From: an uncultured bacterium
Lineage (GTDB): Bacteria; RBG-13-61-14; DATKZS01
Assembly (NCBI GenBank): GCA_964650485.1
Contig: CAZYTX010000015.1
Coordinates: forward strand, 6,182-70,181
DNA length: 64,000 nucleotides
Direction of reading: 5' to 3'
Shown here: one piece after another, positions 6,634 to 61,652 of the stretch
How the letters are laid out: the number at the start of each line of letters is the position of its first letter
Numbering within the stretch: the first letter of the stretch is position 1
The notes under the pieces: model-generated
Databases searched by the model: none
Told to the model about the DNA's origin: nothing
What the model saw: the letters and a program-made list of their open reading frames with translations, nothing else
Program-made: the position numbers and the translations under genes

Positions 6634-7566
6634 ATGCATCCGGTAATCGAGATCATAGATATAGTCTCGCCTGTTTTCCTGCTTATCGGGGTGGGCTACG
6701 CCCTTGGCTCCAGGGGGTTTATGGGGCCGGAGGCGGTCTCGGTTCTTTCCAGGCTGGTGTTTTACGTTGCCGCGCCCCCGCTGCTTTTCAGGAGCGCGGC
6801 AGGGGCGGACCTGTCCCGGGCACTTGACATGGGCTCCATCGCCTGGATAGCGCTGGTGACCGTGCTCACAGCCTCCGCCACATACGCGCTCGCGGCATGG
6901 ACCAGGCCCGAGCGCCGGGGTGTGATCGCCCAGGGTGTCTTCCGCACCAACATGGTGTTCGTGGGGCTTCCGGTGATCATGAACGCCTTTGGCGAGGAGG
7001 TTCTGGGCCCGGCCGCGGTGCTCATAGGCTTCATGGTGCCGGTGTACAACCTCCTTGCCGTGCTGGTGCTCTCCCTGCCGCATAAGAGCGCGCAAGGCCC
7101 CGGGTCCCTGCTTTGGAAGACTGCGCGCGAGGTGGTGTTGAACCCTCTCATCCTGGGCAGCGCCGGGGGCATGGTCTTCTCCGCGCTGGGCCTTGCCCTG
7201 CCCGTGTTCGCGGACCGCACCTTCGATCTCTTGGGAAGGATAGCCATGCCGCTCGCGCTCCTGGTGGTGGGCGCCGGGCTTGACGTTCAGAGGCTGCGCA
7301 CCGAGCTGAGAGCGGCCTCCCTCATCTCTTTTATCAAGCTGATAATATACCCCGCGCTTATCTATGCGGGGCTCAGGATGGCCGGGGTCTCCGGGGTGTC
7401 GCTGCAGTTCCCGGTGCTGCTCATGGCCGCGCCCACCGCGGTGGCCAGCCACATCATGGCCCGGGAGATGGGAGGCGATTCTCAGCTTTCCTCCGCGGTC
7501 GTTATCGGCGCCACCCTGAGTTCACTTTTCACCATTACCCTGTGGCTGGTGTTCTTCAGGCTCTGA
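6634..7566 (+). CDS. AEC (auxin efflux carrier / malate permease) family transporter
   Basis: 310 aa, ~10 TM helices in a 5+5 arrangement separated by a hydrophilic loop. Composition is typical of the PF03547 membrane transport family. Confidence 0.65.
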   Translation: MHPVIEIIDIVSPVFLLIGVGYALGSRGFMGPEAVSVLSRLVFYVAAPPLLFRSAAGADLSRALDMGSIAWIALVTVLTASATYALAAWTRPERRGVIAQGVFRTNMVFVGLPVIMNAFGEEVLGPAAVLIGFMVPVYNLLAVLVLSLPHKSAQGPGSLLWKTAREVVLNPLILGSAGGMVFSALGLALPVFADRTFDLLGRIAMPLALLVVGAGLDVQRLRTELRAASLISFIKLIIYPALIYAGLRMAGVSGVSLQFPVLLMAAPTAVASHIMAREMGGDSQLSSAVVIGATLSSLFTITLWLVFFRL

Positions 7567-7613: not shown

Positions 7614-8822
7614 ATGAAGCCTTTCCAGGTGCTGGTAAAGCCCGCAGCGGGCGATTGCAACCTTGCATGCGAGTACTGCTTTTACCGGAGCACCACGCCC
7701 GAGCTCTACCCCGATCAGAAAAAACACCGCATGAGCCGCGAGGTCATGGAACTGCTGGTGAAAGACCTCCTCTCCTACCGCTTTGCCGAGACCATCTTTT
7801 CATGGCAGGGAGGCGAGCCCACCCTCATGGGACTCGATTTTTTCGAGGACGTGATCCGCGCGCAGATGGACAATGGAAAGGGCGGCCAGGTGGTGGGCAA
7901 CGCGCTCCAGACCAACGGCATCCTCATAAACGACGACTGGGCCAGGTTCCTTTCCCGCTACAAGGTGGTGGTGGGACTTTCCCTGGACGGACCACGGGAT
8001 GTTCACGACCGCTTTCGGAAGAGCGCGGGAGGAGGGCCTACCTTTGACCGGGTGATGGAGGCCGCGGAGGTGATGAAAAGGCGGGGCGTGGCCTTTAATA
8101 TCCTCTGCGTGGTGAACCGGTATAACCAGGACCTGGGCCGCGAGGTTTTCCGGTTTTTCAAGGCCCAGGGTTTCGATTACATCCAGTTCATACCCTGCCT
8201 GGAGACGCACCCCGAGAGCTGCGAGGTCATGCCCTTCTCGGCCACGCCCGACGGGCTGGCCCGCTTCTTTTGCCGGGTGTTCGAGGAGTACGCCGCGGAG
8301 GGTTTCCCCCGGGTGTCGGAGCGCAACTTCGACGCGCTCCTCAGCATGCACGTTACAGGCAGCCCGGGTCTTTGCACCTTCGAGGACAAGTGCGGCTCCT
8401 ACCTGGTGGTCGAGTACAACGGGGACATATACCCTTGCGACTTCTTCGTGGAGGAGAAGTGGCGGCTGGGGAACCTGGGCGACAAGCGGCTGGGCGAGTT
8501 CTTCGAGCACCCCCTGATGCACAAGTTCGCCGCGGCCAAGCAGAAGGTCCCGGCCGAGTGCAGGCGGTGCAGGTGGTACGCCTGGTGCTTCGGCGGTTGT
8601 CTCAAGGACAGGCTCCCGCACCGGGCGGATGGCCCGGGCAAGAGCCGGTTCTGCGAGTCCTACCTTGCCATGTTCGAATGCTCGCAAGAGAAGATGGAGA
8701 AGTGGGCGGAGATGGTGAGGCAAAGGGACGGTCAGGCGGAGCAGGAGGGGAAAAGGCCCGGCAGGAACGCCCCCTGCCCCTGCGGCTCCGGGAAGAAGTA
8801 CAAGAAGTGCTGCGGCGCGTGA
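7614..8822 (+). CDS. Radical SAM / SPASM-domain maturase of the anaerobic sulfatase-maturating enzyme (anSME) type with a C-terminal SecA-like SEC-C zinc-binding tail
   Basis: N-terminal VLVKPAAGDCNLACEYCFY (Cx3Cx2C). C-terminal Cys clusters CTFEDKCG...YPCDFF...CRRCRWYAWCFGGC fit SPASM. The last 20 aa, [20 protein letters not shown], form a SEC-C motif. Start is at MKPFQ (ATG 7614). Confidence 0.7.
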   Translation: MKPFQVLVKPAAGDCNLACEYCFYRSTTPELYPDQKKHRMSREVMELLVKDLLSYRFAETIFSWQGGEPTLMGLDFFEDVIRAQMDNGKGGQVVGNALQTNGILINDDWARFLSRYKVVVGLSLDGPRDVHDRFRKSAGGGPTFDRVMEAAEVMKRRGVAFNILCVVNRYNQDLGREVFRFFKAQGFDYIQFIPCLETHPESCEVMPFSATPDGLARFFCRVFEEYAAEGFPRVSERNFDALLSMHVTGSPGLCTFEDKCGSYLVVEYNGDIYPCDFFVEEKWRLGNLGDKRLGEFFEHPLMHKFAAAKQKVPAECRRCRWYAWCFGGCLKDRLPHRADGPGKSRFCESYLAMFECSQEKMEKWAEMVRQRDGQAEQEGKRPGRNAPCPCGSGKKYKKCCGA

Positions 8823-8831
8823 GCTTCCACA

Positions 8832-9842
8832 CTATGGTTCTACGTATACCCGCTGGCGCCTGGACGGAGGGCTCTGGTTGGGCGCCGCCGCGTTGTCCAC
8901 CGCGGTGATCGCGTACTCGTACTCCGCGCCGGCCCTGGCGGTCCGGTCGAGGTAACCGGTCTCTTTCAGGGGGTCGAGGAATAGCTGCTTGAAGTCGGTC
9001 TTTCCCGGCCTCCTCCTCCATACCAGGTACCCGTCGAGGTCCGGCTCCTGGTTCATAAGCCAGGAAAGCTGAACACCCTCGCCGGTCCAGGCGGCGCTCA
9101 CCCCCTTGGGCGCCGCGGGCGGGACCTTGTCCACCGGGACCACGCTGACCCGGGCCGGCGGCCCCTCCACACTCGGGTACCCGGGCGGCTGGATCATTGC
9201 CCTTATCTCGTAGAAGTATTGGGCCCCGTTCTCGACGGGGCCGTCGGAGAAGCGGGTCGCGGCGATGGGCTCCGGGTTCACTGGATGGAAGGACTCGAGT
9301 GCCGGGCTCCCGGTCCGGTACAGGTTATATAAGAGGCCGGGTGGTGCGCCTTCCGGGGGCCGCCATGTTACGTCCGCGTGACCGTCGCCCGGCTCGGCCG
9401 CGGGGTTCTTTGGCGCACCCGGCGGCTGCGGGTTCATGGCCTTCACCGGCCCCGCGGCCTCGCCGCTCTCCTGCTCCGCTGATACGCCCCGGACCTTGTA
9501 AAGAGCGGCCCGGCCGTGCTCCAGGGAGCAGTCGGAAAAGCGGGTCTTGTCCGTGCTTTCAATGACCATATACGAAGGCGATCCCCTGTGGCCGGGCTCC
9601 TCGGCGCGCAGCACCTGGTAGCTTGTCGCGGCCACCTTTTGCGGGGGCTTTTCCTCCGGCGCTGTCCAGGACAGCTCTACGCAACCCTCGCGCACCAGCG
9701 CGGCAAGGTCCCCGGGCCTGGCCGGCGCCGGGACCAGCGGCGGCTCCGGCAAGGCCTTCACCCCGCAGTAGCAGAGCAGGAGACCGGCCGCGCACAAAGG
9801 CGTGTATATTATAGGGTATTGGAGGCGCTTGCCTGAGATCAT
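8832..9842 (-). CDS. Secreted protein with three fibronectin type III-like repeats
   Basis: N-terminal hydrophobic segment with LLLCYCG. Three ~90-aa repeats, each starting with a P-rich linker then a Y/W-rich beta motif (LSWTAPE..., VTWRPPE..., LSWLMNQ...). Start ATGA overlaps the hisA stop. Confidence 0.5.
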   Translation of the reverse strand: MISGKRLQYPIIYTPLCAAGLLLCYCGVKALPEPPLVPAPARPGDLAALVREGCVELSWTAPEEKPPQKVAATSYQVLRAEEPGHRGSPSYMVIESTDKTRFSDCSLEHGRAALYKVRGVSAEQESGEAAGPVKAMNPQPPGAPKNPAAEPGDGHADVTWRPPEGAPPGLLYNLYRTGSPALESFHPVNPEPIAATRFSDGPVENGAQYFYEIRAMIQPPGYPSVEGPPARVSVVPVDKVPPAAPKGVSAAWTGEGVQLSWLMNQEPDLDGYLVWRRRPGKTDFKQLFLDPLKETGYLDRTARAGAEYEYAITAVDNAAAPNQSPPSRRQRVYVEP

Positions 9843-36410: not shown

Positions 36411-38957
36411 TCATAGTCCCGAGAACGCGCTCCTTTGGATGATGTCGTCCTGGACCGGCTTGCCCAGGTCAACGAAGTATGCGGAGTAGCCCGACACCCT
36501 GACCACAAGGTCCTTGTACCGGTCCGGGTGCTGCTGTGCCTCGCGGAGCACCTTGTCGTCCACCACGTTGAACTGCACCTGCATGCCACCCTGCCTGAAG
36601 TGGGCTCTTATCATTGCCGCCACCTTCTTAACGCCCGCGTCGGTGGCGAGCATGGTTGGCAGGAACTTTACGTTTGTGGAGGAGCCGTTCGGCGCCAGCC
36701 GGTGGTTTAACTTGGCAACGCTCTGCAGCGCGGCCACCGGCCCCTTCTTCTCGGCCTGGTTCGATGGGGAGAGGCTGTTGGACACGGGCTCGCCCGCGCT
36801 CCTGCCGTCCGGTGTCGCCGCAAGCACCGTGCCCTCGAACACGTGCATGCCGTACGAGAAGAAGCTTGGCCTGTATATGCCGCCCCGAAGGGGCTTGTGC
36901 TTCATGACCTCGGTGCAGAAGAACTCCGCCACCTCGCTCGCGATCGCGTCCGCCCGGTCGTCGTCCTGGCCGTACTTGGGGGCCCTGGTCTTGAGCCGCG
37001 CTTTCAGCTTCTCCTTTCCCTTGAAGTTATTCCTGTGCGCGTCCAGGAGCTCGGCCATGGACACGCTCCCCTGTTCGTATACCATCTCCTTTATGGCGGC
37101 CAGGGAGTCCGCCGCAGTGGCCAGGCCCCGGCCAGAGATGGAGTTGAAGTTGTACTGGGCCCCTCCCACGGTGGCGTCCTTCGCATTCTCGATGCACCCC
37201 TTCAGGGTGAGGGATACGAACGGGCAGGGCAGCATCTCCGCGTATGCCCGGTCTTTGAGGTCCGTGGCCCTGGCGATCAGGTCCACGCACGCGGCCACCT
37301 GTTTTTTATAAGCTTCCATGAACTGGTCGAAGGTCTTGAACTTTCGCGGGTCACCGGTCTTCGGTCCAAAGCGACTGCCGGCCATGCGCAGGTAGCCGTT
37401 GTTGAGCGTCATCTCGAAAGCGCCCACCAAAGACACGTCGTTTCCCGAGGTGCAGCCAAAGGTGTTCCCGTGCGAGGTCGGCTCCACGCACCCGATGATT
37501 GCATAGTCGCGCGCGTCCTCGATGGAGTAGCCGGAGTCGGCGAGAGCCGGCACGATGGCCTCGTCGTTGAATATGGAGGGGCCGTTGGCGCTCCTGTGAA
37601 TGGATACCACCTTTTCCACGTAATCATCCGGCGACTTTTCGCTTGTCCTGAAAGACATAGAGTTCGTCATGTGCTGCATGGTGGTGGTGGCCTTGATGAA
37701 CAGGTATGAGAGCGGGTTGGTGGCGTCCTCCCCGTCGCGGCCCACCCCGCCCACGGTCACGGCCATGTTGTCCGCGCCCAGCTCGGACCCGGTCTGCTTG
37801 CCGTAAGGAGGCAGCACGATCACGTTATAGGAGAGCTTTACGATCAGCTCCTCCAGAAGCTCGAGCGCCTGCTCCTCGGTGATGCTCCCTCCCTCCAGGT
37901 CCGCCTTCAGATACGGCCACAAATACTGGTCCATGCGTCCGAGCGCGAACACGCTGGGCATCCCGTATGATATGAGAGCCATGACCTGGGTGAGCCACAC
38001 GAACTGGAGGGCCTCGCGAAAGTCGCCCGGGGGATGCCAGGGCACTCGCCTGCACCGCTCGGCTATTGCGATAAGCTCGGCCTTGCGCGCCGGGTCCCGT
38101 TGCTCTCTCGCCTTTTCCTCGGCCAGCCTTGCAAAGCGCCCCGCAAAGACCCTGGCAGCGTCGCAGCATATGATAACGGAATCGAGGAAAGCCCCGGCCT
38201 CGGGGTCATTGCCCGCCTCCTGCAGCTTCTCCCCGGCCCTTTTCTTCGCGCCCTCGAACCCTCCTTCCAGCAGGTTCTTGTGACCTATGACCAGGTGGCC
38301 CTGCACGTCGAACACGTTCATGCACAGCCCCGGGTTGTTGACCGGTATCTCCTCCCCGGCCCGGGCCATGTACCTGGGGTTCCCGCCCGCGCTCTGCACC
38401 TGCTTGTACACGGCGCCCAGCCCGAAGCCCCGCACCCGGTCGAGCGAGCTTCTTGCCGTGAGCTTTACGGGAAAGTATAGGCCGCTTTGTTTCCAGAGCT
38501 CTTTCTTGCGCTCTCGTATGGTCTTGCTGTGCCAGTAGGGTAGGATGTCCTGCATGAGCTCGCGCTTCTCGTCTTCGGAGAGGCGGTAGGGCCTGTCCGG
38601 CCGGGTGAGGAGCTTTTCCAGTTCCATCTCCAGCACCAGGTTGATTTCGCCCCGCTCCACCGGTATCACCGCGGCCACCAGCTTGCCCGAGCGGTTGCCC
38701 ACTATGGCCTCCCGGTCCAGGATGTATACGGTCATGTTCTCCAGGGTGTGGGCGAAAGCCCGGGCCGCGCGCAGGGCAGGGTGCAGACCCCCGGTGCCCC
38801 TATACGATTCAGTGTAGTAGCGGGCCCGCTCGATGCATATCTCGTAGGGCGCGTCCAGGATCATTTTTCGCAGGGCATGAGTGCGGGATTGCGGCTCTGT
38901 CGTCTGGGGTGCGGGGATCCTGTTTTTTTCTGGAAGGCTTTCTACGGCTTCTGTCAT
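36411..38957 (-). CDS. Glycyl radical enzyme of the pyruvate formate-lyase superfamily (PFL2 / diol-dehydratase / lyase type; substrate unknown)
   Basis: 848 aa. Glycyl radical motif RVSGYSAYF near the C-terminus. Thiyl-radical Cys loop IIGCVEP. Central ...GRMDQYLWPYL... The whole architecture is PFL-like. Confidence 0.85.
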   Translation of the reverse strand: MTEAVESLPEKNRIPAPQTTEPQSRTHALRKMILDAPYEICIERARYYTESYRGTGGLHPALRAARAFAHTLENMTVYILDREAIVGNRSGKLVAAVIPVERGEINLVLEMELEKLLTRPDRPYRLSEDEKRELMQDILPYWHSKTIRERKKELWKQSGLYFPVKLTARSSLDRVRGFGLGAVYKQVQSAGGNPRYMARAGEEIPVNNPGLCMNVFDVQGHLVIGHKNLLEGGFEGAKKRAGEKLQEAGNDPEAGAFLDSVIICCDAARVFAGRFARLAEEKAREQRDPARKAELIAIAERCRRVPWHPPGDFREALQFVWLTQVMALISYGMPSVFALGRMDQYLWPYLKADLEGGSITEEQALELLEELIVKLSYNVIVLPPYGKQTGSELGADNMAVTVGGVGRDGEDATNPLSYLFIKATTTMQHMTNSMSFRTSEKSPDDYVEKVVSIHRSANGPSIFNDEAIVPALADSGYSIEDARDYAIIGCVEPTSHGNTFGCTSGNDVSLVGAFEMTLNNGYLRMAGSRFGPKTGDPRKFKTFDQFMEAYKKQVAACVDLIARATDLKDRAYAEMLPCPFVSLTLKGCIENAKDATVGGAQYNFNSISGRGLATAADSLAAIKEMVYEQGSVSMAELLDAHRNNFKGKEKLKARLKTRAPKYGQDDDRADAIASEVAEFFCTEVMKHKPLRGGIYRPSFFSYGMHVFEGTVLAATPDGRSAGEPVSNSLSPSNQAEKKGPVAALQSVAKLNHRLAPNGSSTNVKFLPTMLATDAGVKKVAAMIRAHFRQGGMQVQFNVVDDKVLREAQQHPDRYKDLVVRVSGYSAYFVDLGKPVQDDIIQRSAFSGL

Positions 38958-47215: not shown

Positions 47216-48790
47216 TTACAAGGCCCCTGAAACTCCTTGTTCTTTTGAAGACAATATCATACTGGCAACATAGCGGTCCATAAAGTCCGGGTCAAGGTTG
47301 AGCTCCACGTGCCGGGTCCTCTCGGCCATGCCGCACGCCGTATCGAACATCTCGGGGTCGAGCATCATGGCCGCGCCCAGCCCTGCGCCGTTTGGAATGG
47401 AATGTATAAAAGACGGCCTGAACCCGGGCAGCAGCCCTATGTCCATCACCTCGGCGGGGTCCATCTTACCCCCGAAGCTGCCGGTCAGTATGACCCGTTC
47501 CAGGTCCTTAGTCTCCATTCCCGCGCGCTCGAGCAGTATCTCCACGGCCGCCCTGATGGCGCCCTTTGCCTTCTGCAGCTCGCGCACGTCGTTCTGGGAG
47601 AGGAATATGCCGGGAGAGAGCATGACACTCTTCCCGTCCCGCCCCTCCATGATCTTTATCCCGGGCGCGCTCCCCGGCTCCGCGATCCTGCCGGAAGGCT
47701 CTATGGCGCCCGCCTCTATAAGCGCGGTCACCGCGGACAGGAGCCCGCAGCCGGAGAGCCCTTTTGGCTTGCCGCCGCCAATTGTCGAGAGCTCCAGCCC
47801 ATGGTCCCGGCTCCACTTAACCCCGCTTATGGCGCCGTGGCCAGCCCTCATGCCGCAGCTTATGTTCACCCCCTCGAACGCGGGACCCGCGGCGGTGCTC
47901 GCTGCCATGAGCCTGCCGCCGGCTGCCAGCATGACCTCGCCGTTGGTGCCGAGGTCTATGGCAAGAGCATTGCACTCCTTTTCCATGTGGAAGGAAAGCA
48001 TGCAGGCGAGCGCGTCCGAGCCCACGAACCCGCCTATCAAGGGCGCGAAGCGGACCTCTGAGAGCCCCGGGAACAACGAGCCGATGGCCTCGGGCCTGTA
48101 CTCGACCGGCCCGGTGCGGCTTGGCTCGAAAGGTGAGCGCAGGAGCGTACCCACGGGCAGCCCAAGCGCCAGGTGGTGCATGGCCGAGTTTCCCACCGCG
48201 GTTGCCCTTTCCACCCGCTGGCGGGCGCTCGCATCCAGCCCGAGTCCCCGGGCAGCCTCTGCCACGCTCTTCCAGGCCAGCTCGCGCAGGAGTTCCTGGT
48301 TCTTCTCTGCAAAGCCCAGCCTGGACATGACCTCTGCCCCGTGCGAGGTCTGCAGGTTCAGGGTTGCATGGCCGGCGAACACCCTGCCCTCTTCGAGCCC
48401 CGTGATAAAGCAGGCCACCGTGGTGGTGCCCAGGTCAATGGCAAGGCCGAGGGGTCCGGGGACCTTTGACAGGTCCGCGCCGGTTGAAAAGGACTTGTCA
48501 GTGAAGACCGCGGGCGCCTCCATCTGCACCCGGGCCTCTCCAAGCACCTTTGTCTGGCATGCTAGCCTTATGCCCTTTTTGATCTCGTCCTCGCCAAGGT
48601 GCTTGAGCTCGTTTTCAGTGAGCGGGGAGAGCTCTCCGCCGGCCTTGACCCTGCACTTCCCGCACTTGCCCCTTCCCCCGCATGGCCGGTCAAGCAGCAC
48701 TCCCGCGGACAGTATGAGGTCGTCCAGCCTGGCGCCCGGCTCCGCGTCTATCTCCATGGAGGCGTCCTTCATTTCCAGCAGCAGCTTCAT
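47216..48790 (-). CDS. ASKHA-domain protein with N-terminal plant-type [2Fe-2S] ferredoxin domain (RACo-like reductive activator of corrinoid proteins, DUF4445)
   Basis: N-terminal CGGRGKCGKCRV...LACQT ferredoxin Cys pattern. LAIDLGTTTVA is the actin/Hsp70-fold phosphate-1 motif. Later ALAIDLGTNGEV and LTGSFGG complete the ASKHA signature. Stop overlaps the pepA-side spacer; start overlaps the upstream rSAM stop. Confidence 0.65.
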   Translation of the reverse strand: MKLLLEMKDASMEIDAEPGARLDDLILSAGVLLDRPCGGRGKCGKCRVKAGGELSPLTENELKHLGEDEIKKGIRLACQTKVLGEARVQMEAPAVFTDKSFSTGADLSKVPGPLGLAIDLGTTTVACFITGLEEGRVFAGHATLNLQTSHGAEVMSRLGFAEKNQELLRELAWKSVAEAARGLGLDASARQRVERATAVGNSAMHHLALGLPVGTLLRSPFEPSRTGPVEYRPEAIGSLFPGLSEVRFAPLIGGFVGSDALACMLSFHMEKECNALAIDLGTNGEVMLAAGGRLMAASTAAGPAFEGVNISCGMRAGHGAISGVKWSRDHGLELSTIGGGKPKGLSGCGLLSAVTALIEAGAIEPSGRIAEPGSAPGIKIMEGRDGKSVMLSPGIFLSQNDVRELQKAKGAIRAAVEILLERAGMETKDLERVILTGSFGGKMDPAEVMDIGLLPGFRPSFIHSIPNGAGLGAAMMLDPEMFDTACGMAERTRHVELNLDPDFMDRYVASMILSSKEQGVSGAL

Positions 48791-50169
48791 CTTCTGCCCA
48801 GGTTCCTCCTGATCAAGGATACGCCCTCCCCGGCCTCGGATAAAAACGCGGGCAAGGACCTCACCGACATGAGCCTCCTTGCAAGGTAGCCGGGCCTTAG
48901 ATAAAAGTCGCGCACAGCCTCGGCCTTGAGAGCGGCAACCTCCTGCCGGGACAATGCCCTGGTGCGCATGGACACAACCTCGCCGGCCTGGTCAGGGTCA
49001 ACACCCCGGGCCGCCAGGCCCTCGTCCTCGGCCGTTGTCCTGAGCCCGGTGGCCGCCCTGGGCACGGCCACGTTGTAGGACACAAAGTCGGGGTCAAGCT
49101 CGCGTGCAAGCCTCATGGTGGCGCGCACCGTGTGCTCGGTGTCCTCCGGCAGCCCGATTATAAAGGTGGCCACGGTCCTTATCTTGTGTTCTCTGCACAG
49201 CTCGAACCCCCGGCGCACCTTGTCCATGGCAAGCCCCTTGCGGTAGGCCTCCAGGATGTCCTGGTCCGCGCTCTCCACCCCCATGATCAGGGTGTGGCAG
49301 CCCGCTGTTTTAAGGGCCTTCACAAGGTCGGGGTCGAGCAGGTCTGCCCGGGTGAAGGTGGTCCATCCCATGCCCGGCGCCTTTGCAGCCATTTTCTTCA
49401 GCAGTTCGAGCGACCTTTTCCTGCGGGCCCCAAAGCACTGGTCGGTCACGAACAGCTCTCGCACCCCGCGGTTTTTAAGCCAGCAGAGTTCTTCGATCAC
49501 CTCGGCGCAGGGCCGGAGCCTGTATCCCAGGGATGCCATCACGCAGAAGCTGCACTTGAAGGGGCAGCCGAAGTCCGTGAGCACGGTGGCAAACCTCCTG
49601 CCTCTGGCAAAACTGAACCTGTAGCCCTTGTGTCCGAACAGCTCGTGGAGCGGTCTTCCCAGGGAGAACTCTTGTGAAGGCCCCGGGTCAAAGTCGCCTT
49701 TAACACCGCCGTCCTCGCGCACCACGAGGTCCGGCCCTGCCCTGCCCGTGTCGAGGTAAGTCTTAAGCCCGCTGCTCACGAACCTGAGAAGGGCCCCCTT
49801 TACAAAGGGGTGCTCGCGGAGCCACTCTTCCGGCCTGTCAAGGAAGACCTCGCCGGTTATGAAGAGGTCAGCGTCAACCCGGGCTGCGAGCTCCTTGTAA
49901 AAGGCTTTGTCCCCGGAGTCGGTGACCGCGCCCCACAGGCCCAGCACCGCCTGGGGGCCGATCTTTTCAATCTCCTGCATGCACTGATCGGTGGAGAGCT
50001 TCCTTGCCACCGCGTCAATGGCGTGCACCTCGCATGACCGGGCCAGTATTCCGGACTGCATAAGGAGGTCAATGGGCTGGAACAGGTAGTTCGACTTGGT
50101 GTGCTTGGAGCAGTAGTAGTCCCGGATGACCACGTCCCGGGCAGGCGGGTTCAAGAGCAGTATCTTCAA
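48787..50169 (-). CDS. B12-binding-domain radical SAM protein (class B rSAM, 460 aa), paralog 1
   Basis: N-terminal Rossmann-like B12-binding region MKILLLNPPA...HAIDA, and radical SAM cluster motif FGCPFKCSFC. 4-nt overlaps at both ends. Confidence 0.75.
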   Translation of the reverse strand: MKILLLNPPARDVVIRDYYCSKHTKSNYLFQPIDLLMQSGILARSCEVHAIDAVARKLSTDQCMQEIEKIGPQAVLGLWGAVTDSGDKAFYKELAARVDADLFITGEVFLDRPEEWLREHPFVKGALLRFVSSGLKTYLDTGRAGPDLVVREDGGVKGDFDPGPSQEFSLGRPLHELFGHKGYRFSFARGRRFATVLTDFGCPFKCSFCVMASLGYRLRPCAEVIEELCWLKNRGVRELFVTDQCFGARRKRSLELLKKMAAKAPGMGWTTFTRADLLDPDLVKALKTAGCHTLIMGVESADQDILEAYRKGLAMDKVRRGFELCREHKIRTVATFIIGLPEDTEHTVRATMRLARELDPDFVSYNVAVPRAATGLRTTAEDEGLAARGVDPDQAGEVVSMRTRALSRQEVAALKAEAVRDFYLRPGYLARRLMSVRSLPAFLSEAGEGVSLIRRNLGRR

Positions 50170-51356
50170 CCGGCTTCCCCCAGGGCCCTCTTAACGGCGG
50201 CGAACGCTTCATCCACGCTTATGCCTGTAAGACACTCGGGCTCATCGCGCATGCACCTCACCGTCTTTGCGTTGTAGATGTTTATGCAGGGCGAGCAGTC
50301 TATGCCCCGGTATAGCACGACGTGTCCGGGGCCCCGTGGCCCGAACAGTTGCGGGGTCTCTGGCCCGAAGAAGCTCACGGTCTTTGTGCCCAGCGCGTCC
50401 GCGAGGTGGAGCGGCCCGCTGTCGTTTGTGATAAGCAGGTCCGATCTCTGGAGCACCCCTACCAGGTCCCGGAGAGACGACTCCCCTGCAAGGCTCACCA
50501 CTGCGTCTGGGTCCCGGGCCCTCTTGCGCACCCCTTGCACGAACTCTGCCTCACCGGGCGTGCCCAGGAGCACCACCCTTCCCAGGGCTTCCCGGTTAAT
50601 CCTGTCAATCAGCTCCACGAAGCGGCCCTCCGGCCACCTGCGCGCAAGCGCCACCGTGGACGCGTTCGGGTTTACCGCGATCACTTGCTCACCCTCCTGC
50701 ACGCCCTTCCTGTGGAGGAGTGCCATGGCCCTTTCCTTCTCATCTCCTTTCGTATTCAGCTTCACCGGACTCGGCTCGTCGCTGTCATTGCAAAGGGCCC
50801 TCTCCAGGTTCATGAAGTTCAAGGTCACGTGCCAATAGGGGTTGAAGGCCCTTTGATTGTTGTGCAGGTCTCCTCTCCACACGTCCCAGCTATGGAAGCC
50901 GACCCTTACGGGTGCGCGCGACAGGCTGGTGACTATGGCTGAGAAGCGGGAGAGGTACTCGAGATCAATCACCGCGTCCAGCCCGATCTCTCTGACCGAG
51001 GAGAAGAAGCGGAGAATGTTCCACGCCACACCGGGCGCACTCTCGGGCAGGTCCAGGTAGTGCACTTGGTCCGCGATGTGGAGCAGCTCGACAATGCCCC
51101 TGTTCTGCTCCAGGGTAATAAGGTGTATCCTGGCGCCGGGGTTTGTGTTCCTCATGGCGTAGAACACCGGCGCGGCAAGGATGAGGCTGCCCATGCCCCA
51201 GAACTTTATCACCCCGATGTCTTTAAGGTCTGGTGCCCGGGGGTTAACGCCGGGCCTAGCCTTGTCCCTGCCCCGGGCTCTTTCGTACAGGGTGAGCGCG
51301 GCGCATATGGGCACTCCGGCGAAGCGGTCAATGCGCTTCATCCACTGCATGTCCAT
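50166..51356 (-). CDS. Glycosyltransferase family 9 (ADP-heptose:acceptor heptosyltransferase-like)
   Basis: IGVIKFWGMGSLILAAPVF...LLITNDSGPLHLADALGTKTVSFFGPE matches the GT9 fold motifs. Start chosen at MDMQWMK so that TGATG overlaps the upstream rSAM stop; the annotated ORF has a spurious 100-aa N-terminal extension. Confidence 0.7.
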   Translation of the reverse strand: MDMQWMKRIDRFAGVPICAALTLYERARGRDKARPGVNPRAPDLKDIGVIKFWGMGSLILAAPVFYAMRNTNPGARIHLITLEQNRGIVELLHIADQVHYLDLPESAPGVAWNILRFFSSVREIGLDAVIDLEYLSRFSAIVTSLSRAPVRVGFHSWDVWRGDLHNNQRAFNPYWHVTLNFMNLERALCNDSDEPSPVKLNTKGDEKERAMALLHRKGVQEGEQVIAVNPNASTVALARRWPEGRFVELIDRINREALGRVVLLGTPGEAEFVQGVRKRARDPDAVVSLAGESSLRDLVGVLQRSDLLITNDSGPLHLADALGTKTVSFFGPETPQLFGPRGPGHVVLYRGIDCSPCINIYNAKTVRCMRDEPECLTGISVDEAFAAVKRALGEAG

Positions 51357-52779
51357 CACACCCACCCCCTGAACTCGATCACCATCCTGGCGAACGCCGG
51401 CATCCCCCTCACTCCCACGTCGCGCCTTATCACCCGCCACACCCGGGAGGGGCTCGCGTAGAACCTTCGGTAGGCGCGCCTGCGCCATGCCTGGAGCTCG
51501 GCCGGGCTCATGCCGGGCAGGTCCATCACCGCGAAGTTCTGTTCGAACCTGTGCCAGGGCTCCTGCTCGACCCAGCCCTTCTCTGAAGCCGTGTTGAACA
51601 AGGGGGACCCCGGGAAGGGCACGGCGCAGTAGAACTGGGCGTAGTCGAGCGGGAGCGAGCATGCAAAATCAATGGTCTGCCTGACGGTGTCCTCGGTCTC
51701 CCCCGGGTATCCCAGCACCATGTGGGCGGTGACCTGGAGCCCGGCCTTCTTTGCCTGCTCGACCGCCTGCCGGTTCCGCTCGACCGTGACCTTCTTGTTC
51801 ATGAGGTCCAGTATGCGCTGGCTACCGGACTCCAGCCCCAAGCCTATCATCCAGCACCCGGCCCGGTGCAGGAGCCCGAGCAGCTCGGGGTCCACGTGGT
51901 CGGTGCGCGAGTTCACCACGAAGCGCACTCCAAGGTCGAGCTTTATGATCTCCTCCAGCACCCGGGCGGCCCACTCCCTGTTCAGGGTGAACGACTCGGA
52001 CCAGAACAGGAAGTCGTATATGGCGAATTCCTCGCGCACGTGTTCGATCTCCGCCGCGACCCTCTCCGGCGACTTTGTGCGCAGCTTGTGGCCGTAGTAG
52101 GCCGGGTCCGCGCAGAAGGTGCAGTGATAGGGGCACCCCCTGGATGTGCCTATCAAGAGGAAAGGCTTTGCCGAGAAGGGCATCCTGTAGAGATGCGTCT
52201 TTACAAGGCCCCAGGCAGGGAAAGGGAGCTGGTCCAGTACGGCCGGCTCGCGGTCGGGACCGTGCGAGAACCCGTCTCCGTCCCGGAGGGACATGCCGGG
52301 TATGCCTTTTAGTGTCTGGCCCCGCTCCACGGCCCTGGCGGCGTCGCGCACGGTGAGCTCGGGCTCGCCCCGCACCACCGCGTCCAGGCCGGCCGCTGTT
52401 TTCAAGGACTGCTCGGGCAGCGCCGTCACGTGGATGCCGATGGCCAGTATTTTTGAGTCCGGGAACTCCTTCTTGAGCTCGTCCGCGAGCCCGAGGTCTG
52501 AGTCTATGGAGGGCGTGGCGGTGTTTATAACGAACATCCGGGGCTGGAAAGCACGCGCCCGCTGGAGCAGCTCGTCTTTGTCCAGTCCCTCGATGATGCA
52601 GTCATCCAGCCGGCACCCGGCCCCTTCATCCTCCAGCACCGCTGCGATGGTGGCAAGCGATATGGGGGCCCACACCGCGGTCCATGCCCCGGCCCTCTGC
52701 ATGCACCTGCCCTCGCGCACCATGTCCACGCCGGATGCCGCGGGCGGGTTTATCATCTGGATACGCAAGCTCATACCAT
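51356..52779 (-). CDS. B12-binding-domain radical SAM protein, paralog 2
   Basis: Start at MSLRIQMINPPAAS (B12-binding fold), and radical SAM motif SRGCPYHCTFCADP. ORF track start 53113 is inside the upstream GT2 gene. Confidence 0.75.
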
Positions 52780-53460
52780 CTCCCGGAACAGTCTTATGAA
52801 GAACTTGTGCGCCTTCCTGAAGGTGGGCAGCTTTGACTTCCCCCCTGCTCTCGCGTACTCGTGGCTCCCCACTTCTCCCACCCGGAGCCCCTTTTTCAAC
52901 GCCTTCATCACCATCTCGTGCTCGATATCGAAGTCGTATGCGGAGAGGCCCAGGGACAGCGCCTTCTCCCTGTCCATTGCCCTGAAGCCGTTCAGGCAGT
53001 CGGTGAGCTCGACCTTGAAACGGAAAGATATGGCGATGGCCAGGAGGTTCCCGCCCAGGTCGCGGACAAAGTGGGTGAAGTTCGGGTGCACGTCGTCCGA
53101 GCCGCCGCGCCACCTGGATGCGATCACCATGTCCAGGTCGCCGGAAAGAATGGGGCCTGCCAGCCGGGGTATGTCGTCCGGGTCGTGGGACCCGTCCGCG
53201 TCCAGGAAAACCGCCACCTCTCCCGAGGCCTTCTCCAGGCCGGTGCGGTAGCCGTCACCCTTGCCGAGGCCGCTGTCCTCGAAAACCTTGGCGCCCGCGG
53301 CCTGGGCCAGCTCCCGGGTGCGGTCCCTGGAGCGGCCGTCAATGACCAGCACCTCGTCCGCACGGGGCAGGCACCTCTCCACCACGCTCTCAATGGTGGC
53401 TTCCTCGTCTTTTGCAAGAATCACCGCGGATACTTTGACAACCCGTGTATGCATAATCAA
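52771..53460 (-). CDS. GT2 family glycosyltransferase (polyprenyl-phosphate sugar synthase, DPM1-like)
   Basis: VSAVILAKDEEATIESVV...VLVIDGRSRDRT...VFLDADGSHDP (DxD) are GT-A signatures of Dpm1/GtrB-type enzymes. Overlaps the neighbours on both sides. Confidence 0.7.
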   Translation of the reverse strand: MIMHTRVVKVSAVILAKDEEATIESVVERCLPRADEVLVIDGRSRDRTRELAQAAGAKVFEDSGLGKGDGYRTGLEKASGEVAVFLDADGSHDPDDIPRLAGPILSGDLDMVIASRWRGGSDDVHPNFTHFVRDLGGNLLAIAISFRFKVELTDCLNGFRAMDREKALSLGLSAYDFDIEHEMVMKALKKGLRVGEVGSHEYARAGGKSKLPTFRKAHKFFIRLFREMV

Positions 53461-55328
53461 ATGCCCAGCCCGATGGTGATCTCTTGCGGGGGATTAACTA
53501 TTCCTATGAAGCCCACAGGATCGCCGCCCTTTGAAACCTTCACAAGCTCGGCCGGTGGACAGGACTGCAAGCCGTCCACCCAATGATAGGATACCACCGC
53601 AAGCCCCGAAGGTGTAGACACGCTTGAAAGCTCGATCTTTCCGAGCTTTGCTTTTACGCTGCCCGAGCCCTGCAGGAAGAAGTCGCGCTCGCGGTCCAGG
53701 ACGTAGGCTTCGATTTTTCCAAAGGTCTCGGAAAGCCTCGCGCCCTGGTATCTTGACATGCGCTCCCTGGAGGATGCGGAGAAGCATACGACCCAGCCTA
53801 TGTTGTAGAGCTCCATGGCCCGGTCGAGATCCTGGTCGGTGTACTCGGACACCGGCCTCGTGAGCAGGAGCCCGTCGTGGAACCCGGCGTAGTGGTGCTT
53901 TATGAATGCGTTCGGGAGAGGCCCGCCGATGAGCTCCCGGGGCGTGAGCAGGGGCAAGAGGTGCACCAGCCTGGCGCCGCCGTATACGTCCGAGTACTGC
54001 CCCTCCCACACGTTTATGTCCTCGATGAGGATGCGGGCGCTCCTGTCGGTGTTCTCGCGCACCCACGAGACCAGCTCCCGGCTGTTTTTGTCGAGCGTTG
54101 TTGTAAGGGGCGCCGCGCGGCTGAATGCAAGGAAGCTCGGCAGCAGGAGCAATGCGGCGAGGGCCGCGGCAAAGAGCGCCAGGGCTATGGCACGGCCCCC
54201 CTTGATGCGGGTTGCCGCGATCCAGTCGCTTGCCCTTTTGAGGCCCCAGCCGCTTGCCGGCAGCCACATGAAAAAGTATGCGGTCACGTAGCGGTAGGGC
54301 TGCAAATGCATGAGCCGCTCCGAGAAGGAGCCGAAGTAGGAGAGCAGGAGGAAGAACACCACAGCAGCGAGCAGGGGCGCGGCGAGCGCAGGCGACCTGT
54401 GCCTGATGAAGAAGAGCCCGCCTATGCCTGTGGCCACGATGAGCAGCCTGGCAAGGGGCAGGGCGTAAAAGGGCTGCAGCGGGACCATGTCCTTTATCCA
54501 CCTGAAAGGGTCAACGTTCTGGAAGAAGGTGGTTGCGGGGTCCAGGGTCTTCAGGTGCATGAACCTGAAGAAGGGGTATAGCCAGTGGAGGTTCACCATG
54601 AGAACGAACGCGAACGCCCCCACAAGGAGCATGAGGTCCCGGGGCCGGAGCGAGGGCGAGAACATGAGTATCCATACAAGGGCGATCGGCAGCACCAGCA
54701 CGAAAGCGGTCTTGTGCACGGTGAGGGAGGCGGCCAAAGCGAACAGGAGCAGTGCATAGGCCCGGTTCTCCTTGAGGTGCATGAACCGGTAAATGAGCGA
54801 GAGCGGGACCAGGAAGAAGTGGAGCAGGAAGGCGCCGGAGATCATGCCCATGCGGCCGAAGAAGGCGCACTCCGATACCCAGAAGTATACTACGCCCAGG
54901 GCGGAGGCGCACAGTGCCGGGCCGCGGCCGAGCCCGAACCAGCGCATGGAGAAATAGAGCGACAGGGGGGCCAGCGCAAAGCTCCCGATAAAGAGCAGCT
55001 TGATGATGCGGGCGAGGTCTTGGCTTTTAAAGACTACGGCGACAAGCTGCACGGGCAAAGCGGAGTTGAACACGAAGTCCAGGGGATAGCCGGCCATGAA
55101 GAAGGGGTCGTAACCCCACATCCTGCCGTGCTCGCTCGCAAGCTCGCGGGCAGCGTTCGCCCAGTAGTACTGCGAGCAGAAGTCAACGTTGAGTACGGGC
55201 CGGGTGTTTACGATGTGTTCAAATGACTTGAAAGACGATAGGGTGAGGCAGACCTGCAGGATGAGGAGTATGCCAAGGACCAGTGCCGTGTACCCGGCCG
55301 GGAGTCTTTTCTGTTGAGTGTCTCTCAT
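53457..55328 (-). CDS. Polytopic membrane protein (623 aa, >=11 TM, C-terminal soluble domain), putative GT-C-fold glycosyltransferase
   Basis: Topology and size resemble PMT/ArnT-like GT-C enzymes. It is first in an operon with a DPM1-like GT2, the classic donor/transferase pairing. No diagnostic motif confirmed. Confidence 0.4.
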   Translation of the reverse strand: MRDTQQKRLPAGYTALVLGILLILQVCLTLSSFKSFEHIVNTRPVLNVDFCSQYYWANAARELASEHGRMWGYDPFFMAGYPLDFVFNSALPVQLVAVVFKSQDLARIIKLLFIGSFALAPLSLYFSMRWFGLGRGPALCASALGVVYFWVSECAFFGRMGMISGAFLLHFFLVPLSLIYRFMHLKENRAYALLLFALAASLTVHKTAFVLVLPIALVWILMFSPSLRPRDLMLLVGAFAFVLMVNLHWLYPFFRFMHLKTLDPATTFFQNVDPFRWIKDMVPLQPFYALPLARLLIVATGIGGLFFIRHRSPALAAPLLAAVVFFLLLSYFGSFSERLMHLQPYRYVTAYFFMWLPASGWGLKRASDWIAATRIKGGRAIALALFAAALAALLLLPSFLAFSRAAPLTTTLDKNSRELVSWVRENTDRSARILIEDINVWEGQYSDVYGGARLVHLLPLLTPRELIGGPLPNAFIKHHYAGFHDGLLLTRPVSEYTDQDLDRAMELYNIGWVVCFSASSRERMSRYQGARLSETFGKIEAYVLDRERDFFLQGSGSVKAKLGKIELSSVSTPSGLAVVSYHWVDGLQSCPPAELVKVSKGGDPVGFIGIVNPPQEITIGLGI

Positions 55329-55473
55329 GCATTCAATTTGTTAAGAGTCTTTCTTGAAAGCCATGCGTTCCCTGAAGTTCTGTAACGGTACAGACTTATA
55401 AAAAGAAAAGAGTTTAAACAGGCGGCCTTGCATAATTATTAACATTTGAATCAAGATAAAATAAAGCTTGCTC

Positions 55474-55502
55474 TTGACAGAAAAACTTTTCATATTATAC
55501 CA
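55474..55502 (+). promoter_or_regulatory. Candidate sigma70-type promoter for the PPC-domain lipoprotein gene (TTGACA ... TATTATAC)
   Basis: TTGACA at 55474-55479 in an AT-rich 280-bp divergent region. The -10 assignment is ambiguous: spacer is 13-17 nt depending on which hexamer is used. Confidence 0.25.
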
Positions 55503-55609
55503 TAACTAGTTGAAACTTTCATCTCACATCCGGCTACTATTCACGCAAACATGAATAAGAATGTCCGATTCCGGACGCAGGTGAAAAATCAAAAAAGGAG
55601 AATGAAGTC

Positions 55610-56605
55610 ATGAAGACAAAGGTTTTCGCTTTGTCGGTCGCGGCGCTTTTTTTAGTCGGGACCTACGCCTGTTCGCTGAAGGAAGTGGATAAAGCGGTGG
55701 ACACCGCGGATAAGGCGGCGGGCCTGGCTGAAAAGTTCGAGGACAAGGCCGAGGAAAAGAAGGGGTCCTCCGAAGGGGGAGAGACCGCCCAGGCTGCCGG
55801 AGGGGTTAGGCAACAAAGCGGTGTAAGGATTGACAAGTACGAGCCCAACGAGGACCTGCTGAGCCCCACCCAGGTCGAGTTGCCAGCCACCATAAAAGCC
55901 ACAATCGAGCCCGCAGGAGATATTGATTTTTACAAGTTCCACGTTGCCTCGAACAAAAGGGAATTGGTGAATGTCACCTTGCTTAACCCCACCACCAACC
56001 TTCGTCCTTGTTTGCATTTTTACAACCAGAACAGGGAACGCTTTGGGGGAACTGGTAGAGTACAACCCGGAACTGCAAAGGTCGGTGGAGAAATTATCGC
56101 CCTGCCAAATCAGGATTACTATGTAGCAGCATGTACTTCTTCATCAGGCAATTGCGCATGCAGAGAATCAGGAGGAAATTCCAGCAAGTATTACACCCTG
56201 AAGATAGAGCTTGCCGGAGTGGGTGATAAATATGAGCCCAATGAATCACTTACTGAGGCCACCACAGTCTCCCCCGGGAAAATAAAAGGCACCATCAACC
56301 CGAAAAACGACAAGGATGTTTACAAGGTCCGGTTCAGCAGGTCCGGCACAGTAAAGGTCACATTCCATAACCCCACGCTTAACCTTCAACCTTGTCTGCA
56401 TTTTTACGACCAGAACCGGCAACAATTTGGTCAAACGAGTAGGGTTCAAGCCGGCGCAGCCAAGACCGGAGGCAAATTCAATGTACAGCCCAATCAGGAT
56501 TATTATGTAAAAGTATGTACCTCTTCATCAGGTAATTGCGCATGCAGAGGATCGGGAGGAAATTCAGAAAAACCTTACACCCTTGAGATCAGGATGGTAG
56601 AGTAA
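55610..56605 (+). CDS. Lipoprotein/secreted protein with two tandem pre-peptidase C-terminal (PPC)-like domains
   Basis: Signal peptide MKTKVFALSVAALFLVGTYAC. Two ~125-aa repeats, each DKYEPNE...IEP.GD.DFYKF/VYKV...L.N.PCLHFY.QNR..FG...YYV..CTSSSGNCACR..GGNS.K.YTL, matching the DxYEPND...D.DwY.F...YYi.V pattern of PPC domains. Lower GC than neighbours. Confidence 0.5.
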   Translation: MKTKVFALSVAALFLVGTYACSLKEVDKAVDTADKAAGLAEKFEDKAEEKKGSSEGGETAQAAGGVRQQSGVRIDKYEPNEDLLSPTQVELPATIKATIEPAGDIDFYKFHVASNKRELVNVTLLNPTTNLRPCLHFYNQNRERFGGTGRVQPGTAKVGGEIIALPNQDYYVAACTSSSGNCACRESGGNSSKYYTLKIELAGVGDKYEPNESLTEATTVSPGKIKGTINPKNDKDVYKVRFSRSGTVKVTFHNPTLNLQPCLHFYDQNRQQFGQTSRVQAGAAKTGGKFNVQPNQDYYVKVCTSSSGNCACRGSGGNSEKPYTLEIRMVE

Positions 56606-56640
56606 TCAGCGGGAAGCGAGGGACTGGATGCGGGTTGTGA

Positions 56641-56669: not shown

Positions 56670-56693
56670 TAAAACCCTCACCCCTTAAATCTA

Positions 56694-56927: not shown

Positions 56928-56939
56928 ATCACCAAAGCC

Positions 56940-58553: not shown

Positions 58554-61500
58554 TTACACCCCGCAGCACTTCTTGTACTTCTTTCCCGAGCCGCAGGGAC
58601 AGGGGTCGTTCCTTCCCACCTTGGGGACCTCGTGCCTGAAGGTCACGGGCTTCTCGTCTTCCGCTGGACTGATGGGCTCGCGGCCCCCGTCGGGCGCTGA
58701 CTCCGCTGCCTGGGCCGCGGGCATGGCCGGCCTTCCGCCCCTTCCGGCCCTCATGCCTCGTATTGCCCTGCGCCTCCTCTCCATCCTCTCCTGCTCCGGG
58801 TCAACGGGCTGGATGCGGGAGATCCTCTGCACGGCCTCGGAGTGCACGTTGAACACGAAGTCCTGGAACAGGTTTATGGACTCGCGCTTGTACTCGACCA
58901 GGGGGTCCTTCTGCCCGTATCCCGCCAGTCCGATGCCCTCTTTGAGGTGGTCCATGTCCAGGAGGTGGTCCTGCCACAAAGAGTCAATGGTGAAAAGGTA
59001 TATGTCCTTCTCCACCTGGTCCATGGTCTCGGTTCCGATGGCTTCGCGCTTTTGCTGGTACGACTTTATTGCCTGCTCTGCTATCATGCTTGCGAGGTCG
59101 TCCGGGTGGGTGGAGTCCAGCTTCTCCGGGTCCAGGATCACGGCCACCCCGAGCTGCTGCGCCGCCTTGAGGGTCATCTGTTTCCAGTCCCACTCCTCCT
59201 CGGGTGTCTTCTCGTCGCCGAAGGAGTAGACGATGTCCTCGGCCACCCGGGTGACGGCGTCCTCCACCCGGGCCTGGATGCCCTCCTCCCTCATGATGTC
59301 GCGCCGGAGCCCGTAGACTATCTCCCGCTGCTGGTTCATCACGTCGTCGTAGTCCAGCAGCCGCTTCCTGATCTCGAAGTTGTGTTGCTCGACCTTTGCC
59401 TGTGCGCGCTGTATGGCCCTGGACACCATCTTGTGCTCGATGGGCTCGTTGTCCTCGATCCCGATCCTGTCCATTATCTTTGCCAGCGAGTCGGAGCCGA
59501 AGATGCGCATGAGGTCGTCCTCGAGTGAGAGGTAGAAGCGAGAGCTTCCCGGGTCCCCCTGCCTGCCGGATCGTCCCCGGAGCTGGTTGTCAATGCGCCG
59601 GGACTCGTGCCTCTCGGTGCCGATGATGTGCAGCCCCCCCTGGTCCACCACCTTGTTGTGCTCGTCCTCCCACGCGGCGCGGAACCTGGCCATGAGCTCC
59701 TTGAACCTCTCCTCGTCCCCCTTGGCCGCGGTCTTGGCCATCATCTCCGGGTTGCCGCCCAGTATGATGTCTGTGCCGCGTCCGGCCATGTTGGTGGATA
59801 TGGTGACCGCTCCCAGCCGGCCGGCCTGTGCCACTATCTCTGCCTCCCTCTCGTGGTGCTTGGCGTTCAGGATATTATGGCGTATGCCGCGGTTCTTTAG
59901 CATGCGGTGCAGCCGCTCGGACTTCTCCACCGAGGTGGTGCCCACCAGTATGGGCTGGCCGGTCTCGTTGACTTGTTCGATCTCTTCCACCACCGCGGCG
60001 AACTTCTGCTTCTCGGTCTTGTAAATAACATCCGAATGGTCCTCCCTCACCATGGGCATGTGGGTGGGGATGACCCTCACGTCCATCTTGTAGGTGTTGT
60101 GGAACTCCTCCTCCTCGGTCTCCGCGGTGCCGGTCATTCCGGCAAGCTTCTTGTACATGCGGAAGTAGTTCTGCAGGGTGATGGTGGCGATGGTTTGTGT
60201 GGCCTTTGCGATTGAGAGGTTCTCCTTGGCCTCGATGGCCTGGTGGAGCCCGTCCGAGTACCTTCTCCCTTCCATCTTCCTGCCGGTGAACTCGTCCACT
60301 ATCACCACCCGTCCGTTCTCGACCATGTACTCGTCGTCCAGCTCGAACATGTTGTAGGCTTTGAGGAGCTGGCTTACCACGTGCAGCTTCTCGCTCTTGT
60401 CCTGGTAGTCACGGGTGAGCTCGTCCAGCCTGGCGGCCTTGTCCTCCGCGGACAGGCTCTCGTCACGGTTGATCTCGTCCTCCGCTGTGGAGAGCTCGGG
60501 CAGCACGAACACGTCTCCGATGATGCCCACGAGCTCCTCCTGTCCCTCCTCGGTCAGCTCGATTGAGTTGTCCTGCTCGTTGTGCGCGTAGAGCAGCCCC
60601 TTTTTCAGCTCGTACAGGGTCTTGTTCATGCGGAGCTGGTTCTGCACCCGCTCCATCTCCTTTTTTGTCTCCTTGTTGGAGGCGATGAGGTTGAACAGCT
60701 CCTTGTTCTTGGGGTCTCCGGCCTGCACCTGGCAGAGCTTGAAGTAGTACTCCTCGCTGGCGCCGTTGTCCTTCTGCAGGCGGCGGGCCTCGGAGAAAAT
60801 CTTCCTCACTATCTGCTTCTGCCTTTTCACCAGCCGCTCCACCGGCTGCCTGAGCTCGGCATAGGCCCTGGTGTCGTCCCGGTCAACCTCCCCGGATATG
60901 ATGAGCGGGGTGCGGGCCTCGTCTATGAGTATCGAGTCAACCTCGTCAACTATGGCGTAGTAGAGGGGATCGGGCTGCACCATCTCTTCCGCCCGGTGCT
61001 TCAAGTTGTCGCGCAGGTAGTCGAACCCGAACTCGGAGTTGGTCCCGTATGTCACGTCGCAGGAGTAGGCCTGCTTCCTCTCCTCGTCGGGCATGTCGTG
61101 CTGCAGGGAGGAGGCGGAGAGCCCCAGCAGGTTGTACACCGGTCCCATCCACTCGGCGTCGCGCCGCGCCAGGTAGTCGTTCACCGTGATGACGTGCACC
61201 CCCTGTCCCAGCAGGGCGTTCAGGGCCACAGGGCAGGTGGCGGCCAGGGTCTTTCCCTCGCCGGTCTTCATCTCCGCTATCTTGCCCTGGTGCAGGGCGA
61301 TGGCGCCCAGCATCTGCACGTCGTAATGGCGCTGTCCCAGGGTGCGCCTGGCAGCCTCCCTGGTGGCGGCGAACACCTCGGGTAACAGCCCGTCGAGCTT
61401 TTTCATGTAGCGGTCCCAGTCATCGTCGGTGAAGTTCCTGCGCTCCTCCTGGACAGCATCCCAGTCTTTATCAAAGATGCGCTTCCGCCACTTCCCGGCC

Positions 61501-61652
61501 AGGCCGCTCATCTGCTCGTCGGTCATGGACTCGAACTCGGGCTCGAGCGCGTTGATCTCGTGGACTATGGGCCATATCTCTTTTAGCACGCGCTCGTTCT
61601 TGGACCCGAAGATCCTGACCGCGATCGAGCTTAGGCTGGACATTACTGACAT
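58554..61652 (-). CDS. secA: Preprotein translocase ATPase SecA (with C-terminal SEC-C zinc-binding motif)
   Basis: 1032 aa. N-terminal [17 protein letters not shown]-like motor motifs, C-terminal [20 protein letters not shown]. Confidence 0.95.

Follow-up and report, generated by a model that had tools for sequence, protein, structure and literature searches.

A 64,000-nucleotide (nt) stretch of DNA from an uncultured bacterium (contig CAZYTX010000015.1, analysed over its whole length and hereafter the window) codes on its forward strand, at 7614..8822, for a 402-amino-acid (aa) radical S-adenosylmethionine (rSAM) enzyme of the anaerobic sulfatase-maturating enzyme (anSME) family, which ends in a SEC-C, i.e., SecA-like metal-binding, tail. 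The DNA of this tail closely resembles that of the tail of SecA encoded in the same window. The best explanation of these observations as a whole, which we consider likely, is that of an ordinary anSME-family enzyme bearing an old tail, whose resemblance to secA at the DNA level stems from codon bias and whose tail would serve for docking independently of SecA and SecB.

The assignment of the protein is anchored by both domain and family models: Pfam recovers Radical_SAM (3e-18), SPASM (1.3e-10) and SEC-C (3e-10; 40.2 bits against a cutoff of 20.4; residues 384–401) domains, while the NCBIfam equivalog model for anaerobic sulfatase maturases, TIGR03942, is matched over positions 1–362 of its 363 with 387.5 bits against a cutoff of 349.45. 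Thus, both the anSME-type SPASM radical SAM enzyme and the SEC-C tail that an earlier, sequence-only reading had recognized in this gene are upheld. The narrower equivalogs NF010321 (301 vs 441) and NF010308 (273 vs 484) are not reached. The cluster-binding features are all in place: the CX3CX2C radical SAM motif can be read from the sequence as CNLACEYC (C15/C19/C22; 7656..7679, forward strand), and the SPASM region (8373..8654, forward strand; Pfam SPASM at residues 261–319) aligns with that of anSMEcpe from Clostridium perfringens and supplies the auxiliary-cluster cysteines C254, C260, C275, C316, C319, C325, C329 and C347, plus D276. Alignments of 16 and 34 homologous sequences show no variation in the three radical SAM cysteines, the eight auxiliary-cluster cysteines or D276. 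The closest solved structure to the core is likewise anSMEcpe (PDB 4K36; E-value 5.5e-81, residues 1–364), whose YPCDFYV aligns with the YPCDFFV of the window protein, with D276 adjoining C275. We take the Asp following this Aux I cysteine to be the proposed catalytic base, D277 in anSMEcpe. The window protein is hence like anSMEcpe (PDB 4K36–4K39) and AtsB/ChuR, the enzymes of TIGR03942, in its CX3CX2C motif, its SPASM auxiliary cysteines and the Asp next to C275; unlike them, it does not end at about 363–370 residues but adds a linker of about 17 residues and a 20-residue SEC-C knuckle. As judged from its sequence, the gene product is an ordinary anSME-family radical SAM enzyme, and, given its family membership and the presence of its orthologues in sulfatase operons, it is expected to act in the cytoplasm on an unfolded sulfatase, whose (C/S)xPxR motif would have its Cys or Ser oxidized to formylglycine.

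The gene is a single unbroken frame that includes the tail, and its ATG start at 7614 is backed by orthologues opening with MKPFQ and by an identical 402-aa protein in a public collection. A sequencing frameshift as the source of the tail was ruled out by the continuity of the frame and by the same layout in orthologues. Between core and tail lie a C-terminal helix and a poorly conserved linker (about residues 348–382; 8655..8759, forward strand), with the linker varying in length and sequence among homologues. The tail itself, together with the stop codon, occupies 8760..8822 (forward strand); at residues 388–400 it displays the C-terminal CxCx8C[CH] ligand pattern with the conserved Ser and Tyr, and a separate structure match with the tail retrieved the YchJ C-terminal chain 9l6b_C. 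In an AlphaFold2 model of the protein (mean predicted local distance difference test score 93.2) the core is confident, a helix spans residues 347–379, the linker falls to about 65 (block of residues 371–380) and the terminal knuckle lies at 72–86; contacts of the tail are not revealed by the model.

The fusion of a SEC-C tail to a radical SAM maturase had appeared unusual from the single sequence, but it proves to be widespread. The PF02810 domain is present in 85 of the 120 best homologue clusters, with identities down to 43%, and the tails are close variants of one 19-residue form. A scan of one genome per GTDB species yielded at least 592 relatives, with no match closer than 48% identity among those listed; about 50 of the best 80 of these loci, which were inspected, are tailed (39 by regular expression and 11 by inspection). 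These homologue rankings are mildly biased toward tailed matches, since the query included the tail. By record titles, the bacterial tailed loci come from Planctomycetota, Acidobacteriota, Bacillota, Desulfobacterota, Poribacteria, Spirochaetota, Chloroflexota, Verrucomicrobiota, Bacteroidota, Armatimonadota and Hydrogenedentota, and the archaeal ones from three Asgard metagenome-assembled genomes (MAGs; loci L034, L042 and L085). Most tails are of the all-Cys CxCx8CC form; in some, the fourth Cys gives way to His or Met, and others are degenerate. In a rough neighbour-joining tree of 88 sequences, built from the core only, tailed members form large blocks, and the tail changes state about 11 times. 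All seven members of the window clade (the window and loci L001–L006) have it; a check of orthologous genes, as the sequence-only reading had advised, hence finds it both there and in most of the wider family. This distribution indicates that the tail goes back to the ancestry of much of the family and was passed on together with the core, with several losses or gains. We found no discussion of the combination of anSME and SEC-C in the literature searched (SEC-C with radical SAM, SPASM or sulfatase maturation).

The counterpart of the rSAM tail in the window is the SEC-C tail of SecA. The secA gene (58554..61652, reverse strand) codes for a 1032-aa protein with SecA_DEAD, SecA_PP_bind, P-loop_SecA, SecA_SW and SEC-C domains in Pfam, and its tail with the stop codon was located at 58554..58616 (reverse strand) by sequence comparison and motif scan. 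Its closest homologues are 69–75% identical to it, and its nearest named relatives, at about 50% identity, come from Deltaproteobacteria, Desulfatiglans and Thermodesulfobacteriota. No other SEC-C motif was detected in a six-frame motif scan of the window. When anchored at their stop codons, the two tails are identical at 55 of 63 nt (about 54 of 63 by the sequence-only reading, which is borne out in this respect), at 53 of 60 nt without the stops, and at 18 of 20 aa; the longest exact run within the coding part is 23 nt (24 by the earlier count).

Such a likeness could arise if the rSAM tail had been recently taken from, or overwritten by, the 3′ end of secA through intragenomic copying or short-patch gene conversion, as had been suggested from the nucleotide-level identity; the shared 53 of 60 nt and the 23-nt exact run speak for it. 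The likeness has to be weighed against what a shared peptide and shared codon preferences would produce. In simulations, codons for both tail peptides were drawn independently from the usage of 38 open reading frames (ORFs) of the window, wherein G+C at third codon positions (GC3) is about 0.8 and the preferences for AAG, TGC, TAC and AAC are 0.80, 0.90, 0.85 and 0.89, respectively. The simulated identity was 48.0 ± 2.3 of 60 against the observed 53 (P(≥53) 0.023), with P 0.12 for the run length and P 0.11 for the 13 identical codons. With the codon usage of each of the two genes, the expectation was 48.8–49.0 of 60 (standard deviation 2.2–2.3), with P 0.04–0.055 for the identity, 0.18–0.21 for the run length and 0.16–0.21 for the codon identity. 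Fourfold and sixfold degenerate codons are the same in 4 of 8 cases against 2.6 expected, and twofold degenerate codons in 9 of 10 against 7.6 expected. Thus, the likeness of the tails is far above chance as DNA, but at most marginally above the expectation from a shared peptide and codon bias. The seven differences in 60 nt include five synonymous ones, which affect 5 of the 18 codons with a shared amino acid and are spread over about 11 synonymous sites, giving a crude synonymous divergence (dS) of 0.67. Moreover, the similarity stops at the motif: the 60-nt flanks are unrelated, with 16 of 60 identical positions upstream and 18 of 60 downstream.

The relatives tell a similar story. The tail DNA of orthologues is identical at 31–46 of 54 nt to the rSAM tail of the window and at 29–44 of 54 nt to its secA tail, and the variants that set the rSAM tail apart from that of SecA, namely the Ala at position 4 (GRNAPC) and the CCGA end, recur in rSAM orthologues (P0016, P0017 and P0023; P0004 and P0014) and not in secA. 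Two SecA homologues, P0129 and P0126, derive from the same metagenome samples (ERZ21869602 and ERZ27256834) as the rSAM orthologues L002 and L001, respectively, and each pair very probably comes from one organism. These same-sample tail pairs are identical at 42 and 41 of 54 nt, inside the cross-genome range of 40–48; hence, in neither relative is there an excess of the kind that copying would leave. Two observations pull the other way, namely the nominal excess of identity over the codon-usage expectation (P 0.023–0.055) and the window pair itself, which at 49 of 54 is the top off-diagonal value and exceeds all 27 other tail pairs (40–48). However, this pair was picked out post hoc, and its extra identity is mostly due to its Lys codons being AAG only, as against the mixture of AAA and AAG in relatives. 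Both window tails use AAG alone for Lys, which is consistent with the preference of 0.80 for this codon in the window, while several Lys codons of the tail are AAA in L001, L002, L005, L088 and L091, in rSAM and secA tails alike, despite an equally high GC3 of 0.85–0.92. With SEC-C orthologues of divergent DNA in many lineages, including the whole window clade, unrelated flanks, run lengths and codon identities within the codon-usage expectation and no same-sample excess, intragenomic copying is not supported, and we regard it as very improbable. The comparisons indicate that the rSAM tail is not a recent copy of the secA tail of its own genome, and that the two resemble each other because both genes encode almost the same peptide, which is strongly conserved, and share a preference for GC3-rich codons.

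The gene neighbourhoods of orthologues bear on the probable substrate. Two orthologues in the sister subclade, L003 and L006 (57–61% identity), are situated in co-oriented operons of the order sulfatase, 192-aa ORF and rSAM gene. In detail, these operons (L003 6006–9218; L006 5996–9194) combine a sulfatase with a twin-arginine translocation (Tat) signal and a CSPSR motif, a predicted membrane protein of 192–195 aa without a family match and the tailed rSAM enzyme; upstream in L003 are genes for a Na/sulfate symporter and an ABC transporter, and near the L006 operon are a heparinase II/III-like gene and one for ATP sulfurylase/adenosine 5′-phosphosulfate kinase. Similarly, the Thorarchaeota orthologue L034 directly follows a gene for a signal-less sulfatase of 591 aa, in which a regular expression found no (C/S)xPxR. 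The tailed maturase genes of L034 (4421–5632) and L042 (6001–7209) share a downstream order of an ORF of about 250 aa, a geranylgeranyl reductase and a PcrB-family geranylgeranylglyceryl phosphate synthase.

The immediate surroundings of the window gene speak less clearly for sulfatase maturation. No sulfatase gene was detected in the 64-kb window by Pfam searches on 40 ORFs and a (C/S)xPxR motif scan, and in the four closest orthologues (64–71% identity) the maturase gene is followed by a neutral-ceramidase-like gene, with no sulfatase within 8 kb. The latter genes (L004 9235–10485; L005 9257–10510; L001 9345–10601; L002 9098–10396) are co-oriented with the maturase gene, at distances from a 4-nt overlap to a 120-nt gap, and code for proteins about 416 aa long that have a signal peptide and a Pfam Ceramidase_alk domain and reach only 44 bits with the NCBIfam neutral ceramidase model. 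The window has no ceramidase-like homologue. Upstream of its rSAM gene and co-oriented with it is a Mem_trans (AEC-type) transporter gene (6634..7566, forward strand; Pfam Mem_trans 1.1e-27), a neighbour kept in L004 and L005, and L005 is otherwise syntenic with the window over genes for PfkB, a methyl-accepting chemotaxis protein (MCP), a small ORF, Mem_trans and the rSAM enzyme. Where these relatives have the ceramidase-like gene, the window has a convergent 336-aa ORF (8832–9842, reverse strand), which ends 10 nt past the rSAM stop, lacks a family match and comprises three repeat segments that look fibronectin type III-like by eye.

These absences weigh against a simple assignment, and the subclade of closest orthologues could act in trans or on something else. 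In the latter case, the enzyme would not be a sulfatase maturase but would modify another exported protein, such as the product of the ceramidase-like neighbour: this would account for the tight co-orientation in four of the four closest orthologues and for the lack of a sulfatase gene nearby, and the nearest NCBIfam neighbours of the family are indeed peptide-modifying SPASM enzymes. Nevertheless, we consider this unlikely in view of the score above the TIGR03942 equivalog cutoff and the sulfatase operons of the sister subclade. The ceramidase-like protein was itself set aside as a substrate, as these proteins have no conserved (C/S)xPxR motif and the window has no copy of the gene, which leaves the window in want of both candidate partners. 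Action in trans is plausible, since one anSME can serve many unlinked sulfatases (PMC6388578). We retain sulfatase maturation as the predicted function.

As for the tail, the metal-binding domain of SecA binds SecB and 70S ribosomes, and 52 surveyed species have conserved it despite lacking SecB (PMC6620043). YchJ, methionine aminopeptidases and AscA/YecA also carry this domain, which in AscA/YecA binds SecB and ribosomes (bioRxiv 10.1101/613315, bioRxiv 10.1101/2020.07.21.215244), and binding of Zn or Fe is known for the domains of SecA, YecA and YchJ (bioRxiv 10.1101/613315). The rSAM tail resembles the SecA domain (PF02810) in its peptide, in the CxCx8CC ligands, in the Ser and Tyr, and in its position at the very C-terminus, behind a flexible linker of low conservation; the difference lies in the carrier, which is a translocation ATPase in the one case and a radical SAM enzyme, also found in archaea, in the other. 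In this it parallels AscA/YecA, YchJ and the methionine aminopeptidases, which are non-SecA carriers of a terminal SecA-like domain with other catalytic partners.

The most straightforward transfer from SecA would be that the maturase is held through its tail at SecB, SecA or the Sec translocon, such that modification is coupled to Sec-dependent export of the sulfatase. This would accord with the binding of SecB by the SecA and AscA domains (PMC6620043, bioRxiv 10.1101/613315, bioRxiv 10.1101/2020.07.21.215244), with the conservation of the basic residues of the motif in the rSAM tails and with the export of many sulfatases. It is at odds with the types of sulfatases encoded beside tailed maturases, which, as judged by a simple regular expression and by eye, have Tat-like twin-arginine N-termini at nine loci (L003, L006, L011, L015, L018, L021, L022, L027 and L067) and no signal at six (L030, L031, L035, L051, L066 and L034); tail-less maturases likewise adjoin Tat-like sulfatases. 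It is also at odds with the tailed enzymes of the three Asgard MAGs, as archaea are not known to have either SecA or SecB. The contigs of L034 and L042 carry genes for geranylgeranyl reductase and PcrB-family enzymes of archaeal lipid synthesis and are on that account archaeal. Since tailed enzymes occur in Asgard archaea and the adjacent sulfatases are mostly Tat-like or signal-less, a role specific to Sec or SecB appears unlikely, and we give the tether to the Sec apparatus little credence.

A second possibility is that the Cys4 knuckle acts within the enzyme itself as a redox or metal site, either as a rubredoxin-like Fe(Cys)4 relay that helps to reduce the radical SAM cluster or as a sensor that switches the enzyme off in response to metal or oxidation. 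Iron is bound in vivo by SecA-like metal-binding domains, for which a function in sensing has been put forward (bioRxiv 10.1101/613315), the all-Cys form prevails among the rSAM tails, and YchJ, a carrier of such domains, is reported to sense reactive oxygen species (PMC13377102). However, the well-studied anSMEs function with no tail, anSMEcpe being 370 residues long and the TIGR03942 model 363 positions, the fourth ligand is His or Met in some tails and others are degenerate, and the long variable linker fits a tether better than an electron-transfer distance. We accordingly deem a redox or metal-sensing role improbable and rank it as a lesser rival to ribosome docking.

The tail is, we infer, most likely a docking module that is independent of SecA and SecB. 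Among possible docking sites the ribosome is favoured, as reported for the metal-binding domains of SecA and AscA/YecA: a maturase docked there would meet the target motif near the N-terminus of the sulfatase before the latter folds or is exported, a logic akin to that of methionine aminopeptidase, which acts on nascent chains. In AscA the domain mediates binding to both SecB and ribosomes; for the maturase tail, ribosome docking is our best guess, proposed purely by analogy. In its fullest form, which we put forward tentatively and as one possibility, the proposal would be that anSMEs dock on ribosomes through the SEC-C knuckle, with no part for SecA or SecB, and can thereby install formylglycine co-translationally before Tat-destined, Sec-destined or cytoplasmic sulfatases fold; that bacteria and Asgard archaea alike have kept this module; and that the "SecA" metal-binding domain serves quite generally to tag factors acting on nascent chains.

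The remainder of the window includes further radical enzymes. Just downstream of secA and on the same (reverse) strand is a gene for a B12-binding radical SAM protein (56940–58340), which is followed in a run by a 622-aa ORF without a family (53457–55328), a second B12-binding radical SAM protein (51356–53113), a family-9 glycosyltransferase (50166–51662), another radical SAM protein (48787–50169) and a RACo-type corrinoid activase (47216–48790), all on the reverse strand. This run (47216–58340) may constitute a cobalamin-dependent modification cluster. Directly upstream of secA is a gene for a MerB (alkylmercury lyase)-like protein (61777–62640, reverse strand), where the relatives L089–L091 have tatC. 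A glycyl radical enzyme of 848 aa, with pyruvate formate-lyase (PFL)-like and Gly_radical domains, is encoded at 36411–38957 (reverse strand); no activase for it was identified among the window ORFs scanned.

In sum, the window gene appears to be a regular member of a large and already sequenced group, and its likeness to secA a by-product of codon bias. The wider point is that a SecA-like tail is borne by most close relatives of this maturase, across more than 12 bacterial phyla and into the Asgard archaea. If the tail docks on ribosomes, these proteins would be rare among radical SAM enzymes in acting on nascent chains, and, if true, this would speak for seeing the metal-binding domain of SecA as a ribosome tag of general use and not as a receptor for SecB.

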